NCBI GenBank assembly: GCA_944390225.1
Contig: CALXPB010000004.1
Coordinates: 2,366 to 66,365 of the forward strand
Length of the DNA stretch: 64,000 bases
Direction of reading: 5' to 3'
Source: an uncultured Alphaproteobacteria bacterium
GTDB lineage: Bacteria; Pseudomonadota; Alphaproteobacteria; Rs-D84
The translations under genes and the position numbers were made by a program. Shown in pieces: positions 4,466 to 48,852 of the stretch (the stretch's first letter is position 1; every line of letters begins with the position of its first letter). The notes beneath the pieces are model-generated. The model was not told the origin of the DNA. It searched no databases and was given only the letters and a program-made list of their open reading frames with translations.

Positions 4466-5029
4466 ATGAAGAAAACTTTGTTCCTTATGATTTGTTCGGT
4501 GCTTATGTTGGGGGCTTGTTCGACAGGTTCGGATACCCCGTATAACGAAGTTGATTTTGCACAGGGTGGTTCAGATGCACCTTTATATAACGAACGAACA
4601 AGTGGTTTTATGCAGGCGGAAAATCAGTATTCTAATATTGATTCGTATAAACCTAAGACCGCCGCGGAAAAAGAGCAAAGTAATAACAGATGGAATACCG
4701 CCAGAATGGAAACTCGGTGGCAGGAATATCGCGGTACTATGGTTCGTGTGCAAATCTTGTTGGGAAATTCGGATTTACGAGAAATGCGCTTGCGCCTGAT
4801 ACAGAATGCTGACGGTATGGATGTTGACGGGGATTCTCGGACAATATTGGCAAAAGTTGCCGATTATGAAATGAAACGTATTTGCGGCAGAAATGCAGAT
4901 AGTATCGTGATGGTTTATGACAGACCGTCTTTTGACGTTATGCGTCCGACGCCTTATTTCGATTATAGGGTAGAGGCAGAAGGGGCAACTATGCGCGAAT
5001 ATGGTTTTAGATGCGTTTATGCAGATTAA
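4466..5029 (+). CDS. hypothetical lipoprotein
   Basis: Signal peptide with lipobox MKKTLFLMICSVLMLGAC-S. Start is set at ATG 4466 rather than the track start 4436. Confidence 0.6.
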   Translation: MKKTLFLMICSVLMLGACSTGSDTPYNEVDFAQGGSDAPLYNERTSGFMQAENQYSNIDSYKPKTAAEKEQSNNRWNTARMETRWQEYRGTMVRVQILLGNSDLREMRLRLIQNADGMDVDGDSRTILAKVADYEMKRICGRNADSIVMVYDRPSFDVMRPTPYFDYRVEAEGATMREYGFRCVYAD

Positions 5030-5050
5030 TTGAACAAAAAGAGGTAAAGT

Positions 5051-5380
5051 ATGAAAAAATATATGTCAGCATTTGTAATTTGTGGTGCTTTATTTGTAGG
5101 TGCTTGCGACGGCAGTAACAAGGCGCAAGAAGGTGATACTGTCATAATAGATTTTGCCGGTTATATGGATGGTACTCAATTTGAAGGCGGAACGGCAACT
5201 GGTTTTCCGTTAAAATTAGGTAGCGGTCAGTTCGTGCCAGGGTTTGAAGAACAGTTGATAGGGGTTAAGAAAGGTGAAAGCGTTGATGTAAATATTACTT
5301 TCCCTGAGAATTATTATCCCGAGTTAGCAGGTAAAGAAGTAGTGTTTAAGGTAACCGTTCAAGATATTATGAAAGAATAA
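5051..5380 (+). CDS. FKBP-type peptidyl-prolyl cis-trans isomerase, lipoprotein form
   Basis: 109 aa. Lipobox [52 protein letters not shown] is the classical FKBP/trigger-factor PPIase core. Confidence 0.8.
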
Positions 5381-5405
5381 AAAACCGGCGTTTCGCCGGT
5401 TTGTT
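5381..5405 (+). terminator. intrinsic terminator (copy 1 of a duplicated 31-bp terminator sequence)
   Basis: aaaACCGGCGtttCGCCGGTttgtt. The string aaaaaaccggcgtttcgccggtttgttattc recurs identically at 6503-6533. Confidence 0.7.
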
Positions 5406-5562
5406 ATTCTTGTTTATATCTTGTTTTTTATTTTATACAATATATAATCTCTTATTAATAGCACAGGTGAATTTTTTTTTATTTGTGTCATAGGAATAAA
5501 ATCCAAGTTGTTCAAAATAATATTAAAAATGAAAATATTTAATGCTTAAAAGGGGGCATAAA

Positions 5563-6504
5563 ATGGCGTTGCCAAATATTACTAAAAGAAAAATGTTTTT
5601 CGCAAAGTTTGCTACGTTTTGGATACCTGTAAAAACTTATCGCAAGATGTTGCGAGGAATTCTTCTTATGGGGGTTGATAACTATTTAAAGGTTTTAAAA
5701 GAAGAAAAAACAAAGAAATTTTCGTATGAATTATCTGTTGTTGCAATAATGAAAAATGAGGGAGCTTATTTAAAAGAGTGGTTGGATTTTCATATTTTAG
5801 TCGGAGTTGAAAAATTTTATTTGTATGACAACGAATCAAACGACGATACAAAAAAAATTTTGAAACCTTATATTAAACAAGGAATAGTAGAATATACTTA
5901 TTTTCCGGGTCAAAAGCGTCAGAATCCGGCATATATTGACGCGTTAAATAAGCATGCGAATGATTCTCGTTGGATGGCATTTATCGATTTAGACGAATTT
6001 ATAGTACCAGTAAAGCATAAAACTATTACAGATTTCTTACGTACATTGCCAAAGAATTTTGGTGCTTTGGTTTTAACTTGGGTTATGTACGGTTCTGCAG
6101 GTCATAAAAGAAAACCGAAAGGATTAGTTATAGAAAACTTTAAATATCATGCAAATGAAAAACGGCATAGTGGTTGTAAATCTATTGTGAATCCACGATT
6201 AGTAGTGTCCCAACGTAATCCACATATAAATGACGTTGCTGGTTTCTTGATTGACGAAAATGGCAGAAAATTAGGACGTATAGATCAAACAAATAATCCA
6301 CCATCTTATAACAAAATTCGTTGCAATCATTATGTTACAAAGTCTTATGATGAATATAAAGCTAGGTGTAATAAAGGTAGCGCAAGCACGGGAACAAAAT
6401 CACCAACAAAAAAATGGTCCCGTGAAAAATTTGACCGTTATGATACAAATGATATTTACGACGATATTATGGATAAATACGTTAAAATATTAAAGTCTAA
6501 TTAA
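5563..6504 (+). CDS. glycosyltransferase family 92-like (DUF23-type)
   Basis: VAIMKNEGAYLKEWLDFHILVGVEKFYLYDNESNDDT is the typical GT92 N-terminal signature. Start is set at ATG 5563, which has SD ggggg 7 nt upstream; the track start is 5542. Confidence 0.7.
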   Translation: MALPNITKRKMFFAKFATFWIPVKTYRKMLRGILLMGVDNYLKVLKEEKTKKFSYELSVVAIMKNEGAYLKEWLDFHILVGVEKFYLYDNESNDDTKKILKPYIKQGIVEYTYFPGQKRQNPAYIDALNKHANDSRWMAFIDLDEFIVPVKHKTITDFLRTLPKNFGALVLTWVMYGSAGHKRKPKGLVIENFKYHANEKRHSGCKSIVNPRLVVSQRNPHINDVAGFLIDENGRKLGRIDQTNNPPSYNKIRCNHYVTKSYDEYKARCNKGSASTGTKSPTKKWSREKFDRYDTNDIYDDIMDKYVKILKSN

Positions 6505-6530
6505 AAAAACCGGCGTTTCGCCGGTTTGTT
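6505..6530. terminator. bidirectional intrinsic terminator (copy 2 of the duplicated sequence)
   Basis: Same hairpin as 5381-5405. It sits between the convergent GT92-like gene and lpxI, and the lpxI stop codon (6529-6531) lies in its tail. Confidence 0.7.
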
Positions 6531-7353
6531 ATTCGTCTAATGCCAATATGAAAATTCCAAGTTTATTTGCTTGCTTTATTACTTCCGTTTTGTTTACAAC
6601 AAAGCAGGTCTTTGTATTTACTATTATCCCACGTAATTTTGCTGCTGCAACTGCCTTGACTGTATCAACGCCAATAGCAGGAATGTCAATTCTTAAATCT
6701 TGACCGGGTTTGGTCATCTTGGCAAAAACCCCGCTGACTTTTTTGTTTTTTTCCCTCATTTTTATTACTCGTTCTAGCATTTGTGCTGTACCTTCGGCGG
6801 CTTCAACGGCCACAACTTGTTTGTCAACGACGACGGATGCCCCTATGTCTGCTGAACCGATTGTGTGTGAAACTTCTATTGCACGTTCTATGTTCTTTTT
6901 GTCGCTGGCACTGGGTTTCTTTTTTGTCTGTACGCCTGCAGAACAGAACGTTAGTTCTGGTGCGATATCTTGAGCCGCTACAACTTTAAAACCGCGTTTT
7001 TCTATGACTTTATTAAATGCTTTTGCCATGGAATCGTATCCTCGTTGATGTTTTATTATACTAAATAACACAAACAAAGACCATAAATCAGGCCGTATGT
7101 CAGATAAATTAGGATGCCCCAGAGCACCTACGAAAGTAACTTTTTTTATTCCGCGTCGTTTTAACTCGCGTGCGGCGCGCCCCCCAGCACCGAGACGAAT
7201 TACCATATCAGGTTCAAGCCTTTTATCGTAAAAATTCTTTAAACCTATGACGTATACTTCCCAACCGCTTTTTCGTAATGCGTCGCGTGTGTAAAAAGGT
7301 AGGTCTAATGCCCCGGCAATAATTGCTATTCTTTTATCTGCGTTTGTACTCAT
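6529..7353 (-). CDS. lpxI: UDP-2,3-diacylglucosamine pyrophosphatase LpxI (DUF1009)
   Basis: 274 aa. IAIIAGALDLP N-terminus, GAGGRAARELKRRGIKKVTFVGAL, and DIGASVVVDKQVVAVEAAEGTAQMLERV match the LpxI pattern. Confidence 0.78.
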   Translation of the reverse strand: MSTNADKRIAIIAGALDLPFYTRDALRKSGWEVYVIGLKNFYDKRLEPDMVIRLGAGGRAARELKRRGIKKVTFVGALGHPNLSDIRPDLWSLFVLFSIIKHQRGYDSMAKAFNKVIEKRGFKVVAAQDIAPELTFCSAGVQTKKKPSASDKKNIERAIEVSHTIGSADIGASVVVDKQVVAVEAAEGTAQMLERVIKMREKNKKVSGVFAKMTKPGQDLRIDIPAIGVDTVKAVAAAKLRGIIVNTKTCFVVNKTEVIKQANKLGIFILALDE

Positions 7354-37023: not shown

Positions 37024-37584
37024 TTAAACAGACATAATGTCATTTTCTTTTTGTTTAGCCAAGGCATCAACTTCTGCGGAACGAGCATCAAAGACTTTTT
37101 GTAAATCGTCTTCAAACTTATGCTGTTCATCTTCTGAAATTTCTTTATCTGTGACGGCGCGTTTAATTTTACTCATTGCGTCTTGCCTGATATTTCGCAT
37201 AGAGATTTTTGCATCTTCGGCGTATTTCCCAGAAACTTTTGTCAGTTCTTTACGACGTTCTTCTGTAAGAGGTGGCATGTTTAGCCTGATTACGCCACCG
37301 GCAGTCATCGGATTTAACCCCAAACCAGAATCACGAATTGCTTTTTCAATAGCACCGGCATTATTAATATCCCATACGGTAACAGTTAAAGTTTGGGTGT
37401 CTGGTGTAGCAATAGTTGCCAGTTGATTTAACGGCATATCAGAACCATAGACAGGAACCCGAACCCCGTCCAAAAGGTGCACGGATGCGCGACCTGTACG
37501 CAGACCGGCATATTCATTTTTCAGAACGTCAATTGTTTGCAAGGTTTTTTGTTCTACTTCATTTTTTAAAGATAGATAATCCAT
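37024..37584 (-). CDS. frr: ribosome recycling factor
   Basis: 186 aa from ATG 37584 (SD aaggag). LLDGVRVPVYGSDMPLNQLATI..P, LTEERRKELTK. The track's longer N-terminus would overlap the tRNA promoter. Confidence 0.9.
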   Translation of the reverse strand: MDYLSLKNEVEQKTLQTIDVLKNEYAGLRTGRASVHLLDGVRVPVYGSDMPLNQLATIATPDTQTLTVTVWDINNAGAIEKAIRDSGLGLNPMTAGGVIRLNMPPLTEERRKELTKVSGKYAEDAKISMRNIRQDAMSKIKRAVTDKEISEDEQHKFEDDLQKVFDARSAEVDALAKQKENDIMSV

Positions 37585-37623
37585 AATGTGTCTCCTTCTG
37601 AGTAAAAAGGTTAGCAAATTGAT

Positions 37624-37652
37624 TTGACTTTTTGCAAGAAGAAATATAGAAT
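37624..37652 (+). promoter_or_regulatory. sigma70-like promoter TTGACT-N17-TAGAAT for the tRNA pair
   Basis: ttgact ttttgcaagaagaaata tagaat, 12 nt upstream of tRNA-Ala. Confidence 0.55.
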
Positions 37653-37664
37653 GGAGCAACGCAA

Positions 37665-37740
37665 GGGGTTGTAGCTCAGTTGGTAGAGCACTTGCATGGC
37701 ATGCAAGGGGTCGTCAGTTCGAGTCTGATCAGCTCCACCA
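37665..37740 (+). tRNA. tRNA-Ala (anticodon GGC)
   Basis: 76 nt folded by hand. Acceptor GGGGTTG/CAGCTCC with G3:U70, anticodon loop aTGGCat, T-loop TTCGAGT, encoded CCA. Confidence 0.88.
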
Positions 37741-37753
37741 AGAGATAGAGAAT

Positions 37754-37831
37754 GGCGGATGTAGCTCAGCTGGTTAGAGCGTTGGTTTGTGGTACCAAAT
37801 GTCGCCGGTTCGAATCCGGTCATCCGCCCCA
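37754..37831 (+). tRNA. tRNA-His (anticodon GTG) with encoded G-1
   Basis: 78 nt. The extra 5' G pairs with C73. Anticodon loop tTGTGgt, T-loop TTCGAAT, encoded CCA. Confidence 0.88.
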
Positions 37832-38496
37832 GAATAAACAAAATCGCCGTAAGGCGATTTTGTTTATTCTGCGAAAGGATGGGATGAGAACCGGCGAAGA
37901 AGCCGTTCGAACCGCAGTAAAAAGGCGGACGGCAGTACGCCGTTCTGCGTGAGCAGATTTTACAAGGTGGCGAAGCAATCCGGTCATCCGCCCCAGAATA
38001 AACAAAATCGCCGTAAGGCGATTTTGTTTATTCTGCGAAAGGATGGGATGAGAACCGGCGAAGAAGCCGTTCGAACCGCAGTAAAAAGGCGGACGGCAGT
38101 ACGCCGTTCTGCGTGAGCAGATTTTACAAGGTGGCGAAGCAATCCGGGCAGAAGCCCCAGAATAAAAAAAATCGCCGTAAGGCGATTTTGTTTATTCTGC
38201 GAAAGGATGGGATGAGAACCGGCGAAGAAGCCGTTCGAACCGCAGTAAAAAGGCGGACGGCAGTACGCCGTTCTGCGTGAGCAGATTTTACAAGGTGGCG
38301 AAGCAATCCGGGCAGAAGCCCCAGAATAAAAAAAATCGCCGTAAGGCGATTTTGTTTATTCTGCGAAAGGATGGGATGAGAACCGGCGAAGAAGCCGTTC
38401 GAACCGCAGTAAAAAGGCGGACGGCAGTACGCCGTTCTGCGTGAGCAGATTTTACAAGGTGGCGAAGCAATCCGGGTAGAAGTTTCAAAATAAAAA
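37813..38496 (+). repeat. tandem array: 4 full copies plus a partial copy of a 164-bp unit, starting inside the tRNA-His 3' end
   Basis: Unit starts are at 37813, 37977, 38141, 38305 and 38469 (partial), an exact 164-bp period. Copies 1-2 begin with aatccggtcatccgcccca (the tRNA-His 3' end). Copies 3-4 begin with aatccgggcagaagcccca. Each carries the palindrome aataaacaaaatcgcc-gtaa-ggcgattttgtttatt plus about 110 bp that looks GC-richer by eye. Confidence 0.95.
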
Positions 38497-38567
38497 TTAA
38501 GTTAGGAAAATTTTATATCTTGACTTTTTGGGGCTTTTTTATAAATCATTATATATAAGGATTTTTT

Positions 38568-38837
38568 ATGAAAATTGGAAAAAGTACTCGTCTAAAAAAG
38601 AAAAACGATAAAATTGTAAAAGAAAACGCTAATCTTGAAAAGGAAAATGAGATTCTGTTAAAAGAGATTTCAAGTATTATGCAGCAAATAAATTTCCACA
38701 AAGAAAGAATAGAACATATAAATTTTAAAATTAATAAAGAACATTTAAAAAAAGAAAAATTAATAGAATTTTATCAAAAAAATTTTGGGGCTAAAAATTC
38801 TTTTTCTACTTCATCTTTTATTGAAAAGGAAAAATGA
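38568..38837 (+). CDS. hypothetical Lys/Glu/Asn-rich coiled-coil protein (89 aa)
   Basis: ORF only. Low-complexity helical sequence. Coding status uncertain. Confidence 0.35.
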   Translation: MKIGKSTRLKKKNDKIVKENANLEKENEILLKEISSIMQQINFHKERIEHINFKINKEHLKKEKLIEFYQKNFGAKNSFSTSSFIEKEK

Positions 38838-38850
38838 AAAAGGAAGAATT

Positions 38851-39150
38851 ATGAATACAGACAGTAAAGAAGACGCCCCCCCTGATAGTAGTTTAATTCG
38901 GGGAATAAGAGAAGAAAAAGAAACGAGTAAGCAACTAAAACTCTATAACCGGCAACTGCGTGATATAAATAAAAAATTGCGTCGCAGGTATGCCGTGTTA
39001 AAAGCAGAACTAGCAAATATTTCAAACGAAGCAGATTATTACGAACGTCAAATCAAGGAAAAAGAAAAATTGAGTTATTTATTGGCGGAACAGATATATT
39101 TGTCGTATGTCAAAGCGTTTAAAAGTAATAAGAGGGGACGCACCAAATAA
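38851..39150 (+). CDS. hypothetical coiled-coil protein (99 aa)
   Basis: ATG 38851 with SD aggaag. Charged helical sequence, followed by a strong terminator. Confidence 0.4.
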   Translation: MNTDSKEDAPPDSSLIRGIREEKETSKQLKLYNRQLRDINKKLRRRYAVLKAELANISNEADYYERQIKEKEKLSYLLAEQIYLSYVKAFKSNKRGRTK

Positions 39151-46301: not shown

Positions 46302-47586
46302 AATTTTAACTTTTTTTATTACAGTTTTTTTCGTTGTGTCTGCCCAAGGTGCTTCTTTGATAAACGATACAGAAACAGAAAAATTTTTAACGGACTTGAT
46401 TGCTCCTCTGGCGCAGGCCGCAAACGTACCAGACGGAAGAATGAAAGTTCATATTATAAACAGCGATGATTTTAACGCTTTCGTCATGGGGGGCGAGGAT
46501 ATATATGTTTATACCGGTTTGCTGACGCAGATAAAGTCTCCGTCTGCTTTGCAAGCGGTTATAGCGCACGAAATGGGGCATACAATCGGTGGTCATATGG
46601 CGCAGATGTCATCGCGTATGGAGGCAGAATTAAGACGGGCTATGCTGATACAAGCACTTGGCGTGGGGTTAATGGTTGCGGGCGGAAATCCTTCACTGGG
46701 GGCTGGGGTGGTCGCAGGTTCCAGTGGCGTTGCGCAACAGTCTATGTTGGCGTTTACGCGTGACGAGGAAAGAATCGCAGATGATATGGGGTTGAAGTTA
46801 TTGGTTAGTGCCAAACTTGACCCAGACGGTTTTGTACAGGTTTTAGAACAAATGGGTGAAATGACATCGGTATTGGAATCAAAAGTTAATCCGAATAGAA
46901 TAAATCATCCGCTAACATCGGAGCGATTGAATAATGTAAAAGCGCAAATAAAAAAACTAGATTCAGAGTATGTGGCGTCAAATGCTCCGACAAAACGACA
47001 GCAAGAAGAATTTAAGTTGGTGCAGGCTAAACTTATAGGTTATTTGGATAGTCCAGATAGGGTGGCTGCGCTGTTTCCTAATTCTGATAAATCGGATGCC
47101 GCAGTTTATGCGCGGGCGATTGCCAGAATGCAGGCAGGGAAGTTAGAAGATGCACGTATAGGAGTACAATCTTTAATATCAGATAACCCCGATAACCCGT
47201 ATTTTTATGAGTTGCTGGGCGATATTGATTATCAGTTGGGACGCTATGACGACAGCATAGATGCTTATGAAAAAAGTTTGTCTTTACAAGAATCAGCGCC
47301 CCAGATAGAAACTGCGCTGGCGTTGGTTTTGACAGAAAGAAATAAACCGAATGATAAAGAACGGGCAATTGAACTTTGCAAGCGTTCTTTGTTAGTACAA
47401 CCGGCCCCGCTTACATATTGGGTTTTGGCGCGTGCTTATGATGACGGCAGAGCAGATTGGGCTCGCGCAGAATATTATCATATGATAGGCGATAAGAAAA
47501 ATGCTACTAAATACGCACGCTTGGCACGAAAAAGGCTTCCATCTGGTTCACCCGAATATACAAAATCCGGAGATTTAGTGAAATAA
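46294..47586 (+). CDS. M48-family periplasmic metalloprotease with TPR domain (BepA-like)
   Basis: Signal peptide, HEMGHTIGGH (HExxH), C-terminal TPR-like repeats. GTG start overlaps the recG end. Confidence 0.78.
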   Translation: MRKILTFFITVFFVVSAQGASLINDTETEKFLTDLIAPLAQAANVPDGRMKVHIINSDDFNAFVMGGEDIYVYTGLLTQIKSPSALQAVIAHEMGHTIGGHMAQMSSRMEAELRRAMLIQALGVGLMVAGGNPSLGAGVVAGSSGVAQQSMLAFTRDEERIADDMGLKLLVSAKLDPDGFVQVLEQMGEMTSVLESKVNPNRINHPLTSERLNNVKAQIKKLDSEYVASNAPTKRQQEEFKLVQAKLIGYLDSPDRVAALFPNSDKSDAAVYARAIARMQAGKLEDARIGVQSLISDNPDNPYFYELLGDIDYQLGRYDDSIDAYEKSLSLQESAPQIETALALVLTERNKPNDKERAIELCKRSLLVQPAPLTYWVLARAYDDGRADWARAEYYHMIGDKKNATKYARLARKRLPSGSPEYTKSGDLVK

Positions 47587-47612
47587 AAAAACGCCCCAAA
47601 GGGCGTTTTTTT
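47585..47612. terminator. bidirectional intrinsic terminator
   Basis: aaaaaaACGCCCcaaaGGGCGTtttttt, between the convergent M48 gene and ackA. Confidence 0.8.
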
Positions 47613-48852
47613 ATTTTGCGAAAGAATAGTCCATTTCCAAGTGATTTGGATTGTATGTCCCGTTCATTATCGCCAATGTATCTTCTACGATTACTAATTC
47701 TTCGTTTGTTGCAATCATAAAGATTTTTACACGACTGTCTGGTGCGCTGATTTCTGCTTCGTCTACTCCTTTGCGCGCAAGTGCGGCAGAGTTCTTTTCT
47801 TTATCTAATTTTATGCCCAATTCTTCCATACCGCTGCAGAATTTTTCGCGCAAGTAATCATCGTTTTCTCCGACACCCGCTGTAAATACCAGTGCGTCAA
47901 CGTGTCCCAGTTCCGCCATAAACGCACCGATGTAACGTTTCACGTTATGAGCCTCCATTTCCAAGGCCAGACGGCATTTGTCGTTTATTTCTTTGTTTTG
48001 TTCTACATCGCGTCTGTCTGCAAAGCATTCGGTTAACCCCAATAAACCGGAATCCTTGTTTAAATGTTTCTGCATTTGATCTGGGCTAAGCGATAATTTT
48101 TGCATCACATACAATACTATACCTGGATCCAAGTCTCCTGGGCGCGTTCCCATTGTTAGGCCTGCTAGTGGGGTCATACCCAAAGATGTATCGACAGAAA
48201 CCCCGTTTTTAATTGCGCAGGCAGATGCACCGGAACCAATGTGTAAGGTTATTAAATTACATTCTGGCGCTGGTTTGCCAAGTAGTTTTGCTGCTCGCTT
48301 TGACACATATAAATGAGATGTTCCATGAAATCCGTACTTACGAACGCCCAATTCCGTATACCAAGCATTAGGAACGGCATATCTGTACGCATAATCTGGC
48401 ATTGTCTGGTGAAAGGCTGTATCAAATACGGCAACTTGTGTTGCGTTTGGTAATAACTGCTTTGCTGTTACAATACCCAATAAAGCCGCAGGGTTGTGCA
48501 ACGGTGCAATCGCGGAAAGTTCTTCGACGGTTTTGATTACTTCGTCTGTGATTTCAACGGAAGAAGCGAACTTTTCACCCCCCATAACAACGCGATGCCC
48601 AACGCCTTTGATTTCGTTCATATCGATGGAGGCTTCGCGCAACATAAACAGAACAACATTTAACGCCTCGTTATGATTTTTCATCTCGGTTTCTTTGCGT
48701 TGTTTCGTACCGTCTGGATATTTCTGAGTAATGAAAGAATCTGGCAGACCGATTTTTTCAACGTTTCCACCGACAAGTGCTTTTTTTGTATCCGCATCAA
48801 AAACCTGATATTTTAAAGAAGAAGAACCGCAGTTCAAAGCAAGTATGTACAT
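47611..48852 (-). CDS. ackA: acetate kinase
   Basis: MYILALNCGSSSLKYQVFD, GHRVVMGG, FHGTSH, and LVFTAGVGEN. Confidence 0.92.
   Translation of the reverse strand: MYILALNCGSSSLKYQVFDADTKKALVGGNVEKIGLPDSFITQKYPDGTKQRKETEMKNHNEALNVVLFMLREASIDMNEIKGVGHRVVMGGEKFASSVEITDEVIKTVEELSAIAPLHNPAALLGIVTAKQLLPNATQVAVFDTAFHQTMPDYAYRYAVPNAWYTELGVRKYGFHGTSHLYVSKRAAKLLGKPAPECNLITLHIGSGASACAIKNGVSVDTSLGMTPLAGLTMGTRPGDLDPGIVLYVMQKLSLSPDQMQKHLNKDSGLLGLTECFADRRDVEQNKEINDKCRLALEMEAHNVKRYIGAFMAELGHVDALVFTAGVGENDDYLREKFCSGMEELGIKLDKEKNSAALARKGVDEAEISAPDSRVKIFMIATNEELVIVEDTLAIMNGTYNPNHLEMDYSFAK

Follow-up and report, generated by a model that had tools for sequence, protein, structure and literature searches.

Why a streamlined genome should carry, directly behind a tRNA-His gene, a tandem array in which the 3' end of that tRNA returns with every unit is the question raised by the stretch of DNA analysed here, 64,000 nucleotides of contig CALXPB010000004.1 (hereafter, the window). 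The neighbouring frr gene assigns the source organism to Candidatus Enterousia, a reduced-genome gut alphaproteobacterium of the order Rs-D84 with genomes under ~1 Mb (PMC12306168). The answer that we favour, with a probability of roughly 0.6, is that the array consists of four tRNA-linked modules like the RtT repeats of Escherichia coli, which run in the sense of the tRNA, probably give rise to a processed small RNA and were amplified by unequal recombination. Judged by its architecture, the array looks like a distant, previously undescribed counterpart of RtT. A preliminary description of the locus had missed both the E. coli tyrT/RtT analogue and the inverted copy with which every unit opens, that of the tRNA 3' part.

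A tandem array tied to the 3' end of tRNA-His

The array lies just downstream of tRNA-Ala and tRNA-His, which are both encoded on the + strand. Tandem Repeats Finder (TRF) reported a period of 164 with 4.1 copies, 98% matches and 0% indels at 37826-38496, and comparison of the units gave exact starts at 37813, 37977, 38141, 38305 and 38469, in agreement with the strict 164-bp period and the four copies of the preliminary description. The locus comprises:

37624..37652, + strand: sigma-70-like candidate promoter TTGACT-17-TAGAAT upstream of tRNA-Ala (consensus scan, 10/12 matches, pattern match only)
37665..37740, + strand: tRNA-Ala (GGC) (ARAGORN; Rfam tRNA model, 63.5 bits)
37754..37831, + strand: tRNA-His (GTG) with encoded CCA and G-1 at 37754 (ARAGORN, 37755-37831; Rfam tRNA model, 68.9 bits)
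37813-37831, + strand: the repeated 19-nt 'seed' of tRNA-His, A58 to A76 (sequence)
37813..38496, + strand: the whole array, four full 164-bp units and a decayed fifth 19-mer (TRF, unit comparison)
37833..37868, no strand: palindromic hairpin with A-tract and T-tract, directly after the CCA (sequence, terminator scan)
37997-38032, 38161-38196 and 38325-38360, no strand: repeats of this hairpin, the latter two with one mismatch

The last 19 nt of tRNA-His (A58 to A76), AATCCGGTCATCCGCCCCA, recur exactly at 37977, which bears out the proposed tie between the array and the 3' end of this tRNA. A variant 19-mer, AATCCGGGCAGAAGCCCCA, is found at 38141 and 38305, and a decayed one, AATCCGGGTAGAAGTTTCA, at 38469, where it marks the distal boundary of the array; the boundary sequence is identical in L002, a contig of the same species. 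Units 1 and 2 are identical to each other, as are units 3 and 4, and the two pairs differ at 5 positions, all of them in the first 27 nt. The G+C content amounts to 56% in the module core, 51% in the array and 37.4% in the whole window, so that the impression of a GC-richer stretch of ~110 bp was correct.

Directly after each CCA, a 36-nt palindrome has the predicted shape of a rho-independent terminator, with an A-run before and a T-run after a G+C-containing stem-loop. The 16-bp palindrome described before for every unit is perfect in units 1-2 only, whereas in units 3-4 its left arm has a single C>A substitution. The terminator scan called the palindrome on both strands in units 3-4, and in units 1-2 the T-run is absorbed into a longer perfect stem. 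The alignment shows that a hairpin after the CCA is kept in other species with differing stem sequence. Its shape is that of a bidirectional intrinsic terminator, the activity of which is predicted. A much similar AT-rich palindromic terminator, with no core attached, is located at 47580-47627, and bidirectional AT-rich hairpins appear to be the standard terminator style in this genome. Elsewhere in the window, the search for core copies returned AT-rich terminator palindromes only, and no duplicated 3' ends of tRNA-Ala or tRNA-Lys were found. The candidate promoter at 37624..37652 is likely, from its sequence, to be the start of a tRNA-Ala/tRNA-His transcript that reads into the array. Directly after the array, in a stretch of 20-25% G+C, two small coiled-coil-like open reading frames (ORFs) are found on the + strand (38568-38837 and 38851-39150). 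They are conserved among contigs of the same species, and no Pfam family matches them above threshold.

Module anatomy and covariation

The module runs in the orientation of tRNA-His and has a constant order, in which the palindromic hairpin is followed by a diverged antisense copy of the tRNA 3' part (acceptor strand and T-arm), the sense 5' half of the T-arm, the core, which forms a junction with two hairpins, and the sense 19 nt from A58 to A76. The antisense segment is able to pair with the 3' tRNA copy into a terminal helix (P0). The hairpin P1 contains GAUGAGAAC, a diverged antisense T-arm that pairs with GUUCGAA. The module copies were scored with R1, a covariance model built on the unit type of the window:

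37866..37995, + strand: module copy 1, structured core and ends (R1, 135.4 bits, E 3.8e-46)
37877-37881 with 37985-37989: P0 of copy 1, 5' strand GGAUG with CAUCC
37885-37895 with 37902-37911: P1 hairpin of copy 1
37917-37922 with 37958-37963: P2 of copy 1
37924-37941 and 37944-37957: P2a and P2b of copy 1
37977-37995, + strand: 19-mer of copy 1
38030..38159, + strand: module copy 2, ending in the variant 19-mer AATCCGGGCAGAAGCCCCA (R1, 123.9 bits)
38194..38323, + strand: module copy 3, ending in the variant 19-mer (R1, 123.9 bits)
38358..38487, + strand: module copy 4, ending in the decayed 19-mer AATCCGGGTAGAAGTTTCA at 38469-38487 (R1, 124.1 bits)

Inspected by eye, the variant 19-mers no longer pair with GGAUG. 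Their GCAGAA (38148-38153 and 38312-38317) finds its complement in the UUCUGC on the 5' margin of the module (37868-37873), and in the last copy GUAGAA (38476-38481) enters the same pairing with one G-U, which suggests that the terminal helix is kept via a different partner. The four clustered substitutions in the 19-mer could stem from a quasi-palindrome template-switch event.

Covariation was assessed over 46 distinct sequences, with shuffle and slid-alignment controls, and the assessment was repeated on an independent MAFFT alignment. In the module alignment, 81% of the cells are paired and both sides change in 17 of the 31 pairs. The covariation score reached 0.168 versus 0.082 in the shuffles (0/500 reach it), with slid controls at or below 0.056; the covariance analysis of the core that had been proposed as a check thus came out in favour of a structure. 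The best-supported helix is P2 (95% paired; GU:AC = 6:0 on the + strand), which reads GUAAAA/UUUUAC in the window, GCAAAA/UUUUGC in most species and GCACAA/UUGUGC in L039. The T-run that the preliminary description listed with the CTGC/GCAG hairpin is not the tail of a terminator but the 3' strand of this helix. P2 encloses P2a and P2b, of which the former pairs as GGCG/CGCC and also as GGCA/UGCC or GGUG/CACC, and the latter has at least eight different stem sequences. In the first small hairpin, previously read as ACGGC/GCCGT only, the conserved pairing is GGCG/CGCC.

Conservation of the module across Enterousia

Chains of the 19-mer were found downstream of tRNA-His in 36 of the 66 related species loci that include this gene. 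These chains, spread over more than 30 Enterousia species, hold one to four units of 158-217 bp, each of them ending in the tRNA-His 19-mer of its own species. Besides the four window copies (124-135 bits), R1 matched ~30 species loci, always downstream of tRNA-His and on the same strand. Core identity amounts to 65-89% between species whose four-fold sites in frr are saturated (32-44% identical), and by this sequence comparison the core is strongly constrained. The units fall into at least three core types, with mosaics between them, and L014 alternates 208- and 165-bp units.

Type 2 units (193-208 nt; L011, L014, L018, L027, L028, L033, L038, L040, L041 and L043) have the shared ends and a core ACGAGUGGUGAGC...GCGAACAAUACGAAG with a covarying hairpin, and type 3 units (L032, L057, L060, L069, L080 and L083) have the shared ends and a core GGAAAGGGGCCC...UGGGAAUAUACAAUC. 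A tmRNA-like reading, prompted by the 5' GGAUUCGA and the 'resume-codon-like' GCGAACAAU of type 2 units, was dropped, since these units have neither a stop codon nor a tag frame and ARAGORN did not call a tmRNA.

In some relatives, additional genes are found within the units or near them, and array units seem to be insertion hot spots there. In L020 (reverse-complement 5025-6369), a GH108/PG_binding_3 lysozyme-like protein with a Mu-F-like N-terminus and a 151-aa ORF lie inside a 19-mer copy, and in L012 (reverse-complement 4905-7060) a type 2 unit is split by 2.2 kb with two ORFs without a Pfam family match. Genes are also inserted between tRNA-Ala and tRNA-His in L022, L028, L029 (~640 bp) and L051 (~2.4 kb), so the tRNA pair is not always contiguous. 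By eye, one of the inserted genes encodes a 186-217-aa protein resembling DNA-3-methyladenine glycosylase I, and the insert of L051 contains a cysteinyl-tRNA-synthetase-like ORF and a radical-SAM-like ORF.

The same core behind other tRNAs

A metagenome scan with a core pattern returned 16 loci, all of which were confirmed by R1. With these and the ~30 species loci, the proposed search for the unit in other genomes and metagenomes was positive, and no integrase was found in the fetched flanks. In the metagenome loci, the core is hosted by five tRNAs, namely tRNA-His, tRNA-Glu, tRNA-Arg(CCU), tRNA-Ser(GGA) and one unidentified tRNA. The unit plan is the same at every host: an antisense copy of the cognate tRNA 3' part, a short loop, the sense T-stem 5' strand and T-loop to ~A58, the core, and the sense 19 nt A58-A76. 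In a cross-comparison, the cognate pairs scored highest. Whatever the host, the shared core is bounded exactly at A58 of the T-loop and has T-arm sequence on either side. The Arg-linked copy adjoins the CCA directly, and the lack of a terminator hairpin at this point argues for its co-transcription with the tRNA.

The His, Arg and X cores of one assembly are 84-92% identical to each other, and the His and Ser cores of another are 90% identical, whereas the His-linked cores of those two lineages share only 76-81% identity. The cores thus cluster by genome and not by tRNA host, which points to intragenomic spread or gene conversion. With the same core behind several tRNAs of the same genomes, always with the ends of its own host, the module family would spread or be homogenised between tRNA loci. 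In L142 (~5560-5800, + strand), a 79-aa GIY-YIG nuclease ORF (Pfam PF01541, E 1.4e-15) lies between tRNA-Glu and a truncated module, where it takes the place of the antisense T-arm part.

Comparison with the RtT repeats of E. coli and other repeats

The tyrT-tyrV locus of E. coli K-12 contains 3.1 copies of a 178-bp unit, and the last 19 nt of tRNA-Tyr close every unit. Annotated as rttR, with the 'protamine-like' tpr ORF inside, the locus matches the Rfam family RtT (RF00391), with which its four copies scored 133-137 bits as a positive control. RtT occurs at 1 to 10 places per E. coli genome, and its Rfam consensus consists of a terminal stem and a junction with two hairpins. Processing of the tyrT transcript reportedly sets rtT RNA free, a finding for which PMC3318445 and a bioRxiv preprint cite Bosl & Kersten (1991).

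The Enterousia array shares this building plan. In both cases, tandem units stand directly behind a tRNA gene, in its orientation, and close with exactly the last 19 nt of that tRNA (A58-CCA). On the 5' side of the unit, the 3' half of the tRNA is present as a diverged antisense copy, which pairs with the 3' copy; in the E. coli unit it reads GGGGAAGGATgaGAAgCTTCGA, followed by AAGGTTCGA as the sense T-arm half. A terminal stem formed by the 5' segment (GGAUG/CAUCC and GGAU/AUCC pairings) is followed by a motif, AUGAGAA in RtT with GGAUGAGAAC as its Enterousia counterpart, and by the two-hairpin junction, with P2 enclosing P2a and P2b and with covariation. The motifs GGAUGAGAA and AAGG(U)GGCGAAGCG...AAUCC are common to both, as are the polymorphic copy number and a basic 'protamine-like' ORF artefact within the repeat. 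The two differ in their host tRNA, which is Tyr in E. coli and His in Enterousia (Glu, Arg and Ser in relatives), in the type of bacterium (an enterobacterium versus a reduced-genome alphaproteobacterium), in unit length (178 bp versus 164 bp) and in the strong palindromic terminator-type hairpin that follows each CCA in the Enterousia array.

Other short repeats resemble the module less closely. In long terminal repeat (LTR) retroelements, the primer-binding site is complementary over 18 nt to the 3' end of a tRNA, which is copied as far as position 58. The module, with its antisense tRNA 3' end and a sense copy from exactly A58, recalls this arrangement, but it is a resemblance only, as the array has no reverse transcriptase, LTRs or coding capacity. 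With the repetitive extragenic palindromic (REP) sequences, the bacterial interspersed mosaic elements (BIME), the REP doublets forming hairpins (REPIN) and the Rickettsia palindromic elements, the modules share being short, hairpin-rich, non-coding and multi-copy. Unlike these, they occur only behind tRNA genes, in one orientation and with the ends of the host tRNA, and dispersed copies were found neither in the window nor in ~650 kb of related loci.

A probable processed small RNA in the sense of the tRNA

By analogy with rtT RNA, the module is probably released as a small RNA with a tRNA-like CCA end. Transcription would start from the tRNA-Ala/tRNA-His promoter and read through the hairpin, and the tRNA-maturation machinery would excise the module, by an endonuclease cut after the CCA and 3' trimming halted at the terminal helix, along a route modelled on the way in which rtT RNA leaves the tyrT transcript. 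This would yield an RNA of ~130-160 nt with an end mimicking the acceptor end of tRNA-His, and the number of units would shift via unequal homologous recombination between the 19-mer-plus-hairpin repeats. Of the possibilities raised in the preliminary description, a family of tRNA-primed small RNAs comes closest to the evidence as far as small RNAs carrying tRNA ends are concerned, although nothing here supports their being 'primed'. The sense direction agrees with the more stable folds of the + strand (-1533 vs -1443 kcal/mol summed over 22 units; alifold -19.9 vs -16.2).

Several results weigh against this explanation. RF00391 gave no match at E<=10 in 37500-38700 of the window or in L077 and L014, hence below its gathering threshold of 45 bits, and the whole Rfam search of window, L077 and L014 returned only tRNAs and sub-threshold matches caused by the long hairpin. 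Searched with nhmmer, a unit profile matched the E. coli tyrT locus only weakly, in the antisense of tyrT itself. R1 run against the 2-kb E. coli locus had an RtT copy as its best match, on the right strand and in register, at a weak 8.2 bits (E 0.07), followed by two more RtT copies that were weak as well (E 1.2 and 5.2). In the absence of significant homology by these three approaches, the module is to be seen as an RtT-like variant by architecture and not as a member of the Rfam family. Folding of the single core sequence was no better than that of shuffles (z of -1.1 for the + and -0.5 for the - strand), and another value, z = -7.9, was rejected as thermodynamic support, being driven by the tRNA and the palindrome. 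Since single-sequence core energies are unexceptional, the case for structure rests on covariation. For P0, covariation is no proof of a role at the RNA level, as sense and antisense copies of one tRNA piece pair automatically. The overall census of GU versus AC pairs leaves the strand undecided, with P2 at 6:0 for the + strand. As for expression, a scan inspected by eye gave no convincing internal promoter, only weak -10-like strings in the T-rich arm of the hairpin with no -35. Moreover, every module of the window is set apart from the tRNA by a strong hairpin of the bidirectional terminator type, so that read-through may be rare, and the hairpin after each CCA poses the chief difficulty for the proposed transcription.

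Alternative origins of the array

Integrases that target tRNA genes classically leave direct repeats of the tRNA 3' end beginning in the T-loop, and the preliminary description had considered an amplified attachment (att)-like junction. The units would then be the decayed attL/attR scar of an integrative element targeting tRNA-His, the remnant of which was amplified by unequal crossing-over and has no function. The array does share with such elements and with tandemly accreted, integrase-less cis-mobilizable elements (CIMEs) a tRNA 3' end duplicated from the T-loop, a decayed distal copy and a tandem arrangement, and accessory genes are found at the site in some relatives, between tRNA-His and the distal unit in L020 and L012. 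The cargo of L012, however, lies inside a unit and not between att-like repeats. The 'element' would be only 145 bp long, and its structured core is conserved far above neutral expectation, with compensatory base changes. Each unit holds an antisense tRNA copy, which integration does not make, and the same core stands behind five tRNAs with matching ends. Neither integrase nor cargo had been seen at the array before, and this holds, as no recombinase Pfam domain was found among the genes within 10 kb (frr, uppS, cdsA, rseP, bamA, rne, rph and similar). In the viral database IMG/VR, core pattern 1 had 0 exact matches, and a shorter core pattern had 46 viral matches, none confirmed by R1 (best E 0.025). 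These findings make an att scar highly improbable. A selfish, non-autonomous DNA element is easier to reconcile with the data, though still unlikely. Its targets would be tRNA genes, or T-loops in sequence derived from tRNA, and it would spread between tRNA loci as DNA or via an RNA intermediate, with hairpins that are recognised by a trans-acting enzyme and do not belong to a functional RNA. The clustering of cores by genome rather than by tRNA host fits such an element, as do the core edge at exactly A58 in each host with T-arm on both sides, the mosaic units (e.g., L053 and L020) and three independent cargo insertions in or beside units (L012, L020 and L142). Gene conversion between loci could explain the clustering by genome as well, though, and neither the genes within 10 kb nor the fetched flanks include an integrase, transposase or reverse transcriptase. 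Moreover, no copies away from tRNA genes were seen in the 64-kb window and ~650 kb of related loci, none was found in viral contigs, and a unit of 130-165 bp is too small for an ordinary integrative circle.

The remaining alternatives concern the strand and the number of units. The functional strand could be the opposite one, encoding a tRNA-like RNA convergent with tRNA-His, or a 55-aa Arg/Lys-rich ORF on the + strand, like tpr in E. coli, could be a real gene. On the minus strand, a unit does begin with a tRNA-His-like 5' acceptor strand and end with a T-arm-like hairpin and a bidirectional terminator, and ARAGORN places a weak 'tRNA-Lys' opposite the Ser-linked unit (L149). The cloverleaf of the latter is poor, with mismatched acceptor and D arms, and none was called in the window array, where ARAGORN and Rfam report only tRNA-Ala, tRNA-His and tRNA-Lys as tRNA or tmRNA in the entire window. 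An encoded CCA end is meaningful on the + strand only, which is also the strand with the more stable summed folds and the one to which all P2 wobble pairs belong. An opposite-strand tRNA-like gene was accordingly rejected as the principal reading on fold energies, the poor cloverleaf and the P2 wobbles. As to coding, gene callers do predict ORFs in the array, as in RtT. Unit lengths between species (130, 131, 133, 141 and 143 nt) differ by indels of other sizes than multiples of three, and the terminator hairpin falls within every ORF; for these reasons the ORFs are almost certainly artefacts, as the preliminary description had held. Either version of this alternative is extremely improbable. 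ORFs of 57-69 aa are also called within the arrays of L004 (3-173), L007 (2-172) and L009 (2-211), and in L091 (1488-1577). The array ORFs and tpr of E. coli are probably by-products of purine-rich, G+C-rich repeats.

It is also possible, although we consider it the less probable case, that the array is real but its four copies are a product of assembly, and that the true locus has fewer or more units. Within each pair (units 1 and 2, units 3 and 4) the sequences match perfectly over 164 bp, more than typical short reads can bridge. Within the species, the same locus has one unit in L002 and two in L001, two contigs that encode identical Frr, and many other contigs stop inside the first or second unit, a pattern that fits either true copy-number variation or short-read collapse. 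On the other side, multi-unit arrays are present in many independent assemblies (L014 with 4 units, L018, L027, L040, L041 and L086), including several units in the long-read circular metagenome-assembled genome L020. The two sequence variants in the window demand at least two distinct units, and E. coli RtT arrays have a comparable range, 1 to 10 places per genome. Unit number within the species is thus 1, 2 or 4, and the 19-mers of units 3-4 are chimeric. From its sequence, this variant looks like a chimera of the decayed distal and the canonical copies, which is exactly what unequal crossing-over between 19-mers would produce.

Implications for tRNA-linked repeats

A wider reading would regard these modules, and by extension E. 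coli RtT, as a widespread class of tRNA-templated mobile RNA modules, in which a core moves between tRNA loci and acquires its antisense 3' part and its sense copy starting at A58 by copying the host tRNA or its gene. We offer it as a long shot, less probable even than a selfish DNA element. If it were true, the product RNA would carry the acceptor/T-stem minihelix and the CCA end of its host tRNA, and might be recognised by RNase P and the CCA-adding enzyme, perhaps also by the cognate synthetase. The G-1:C73 identity pair of tRNA-His lies in the acceptor helix.

On the practical side, such arrays break short-read assemblies beside tRNA genes and yield spurious basic ORFs, and in relatives of the organism studied here they are sites of accessory-gene insertion. 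The tyrT repeats and rtT RNA of E. coli have been known for decades as what seemed an enterobacterial oddity, the origin and function of which are still unexplained, and the same building plan is now found in a bacterium far removed from E. coli that has a streamlined genome of ~1 Mb. This turns a single-locus curiosity into a comparative system, with several tRNAs, a saturated neutral background and likeness by genome. The invariant rules of the module (antisense 3' half, sense T-arm half, core, and 19 nt from A58) suggest that a specific mechanism, of copying or of processing, is linked to the 3' ends of tRNAs, and these rules can now be tested in the genetically tractable E. coli.

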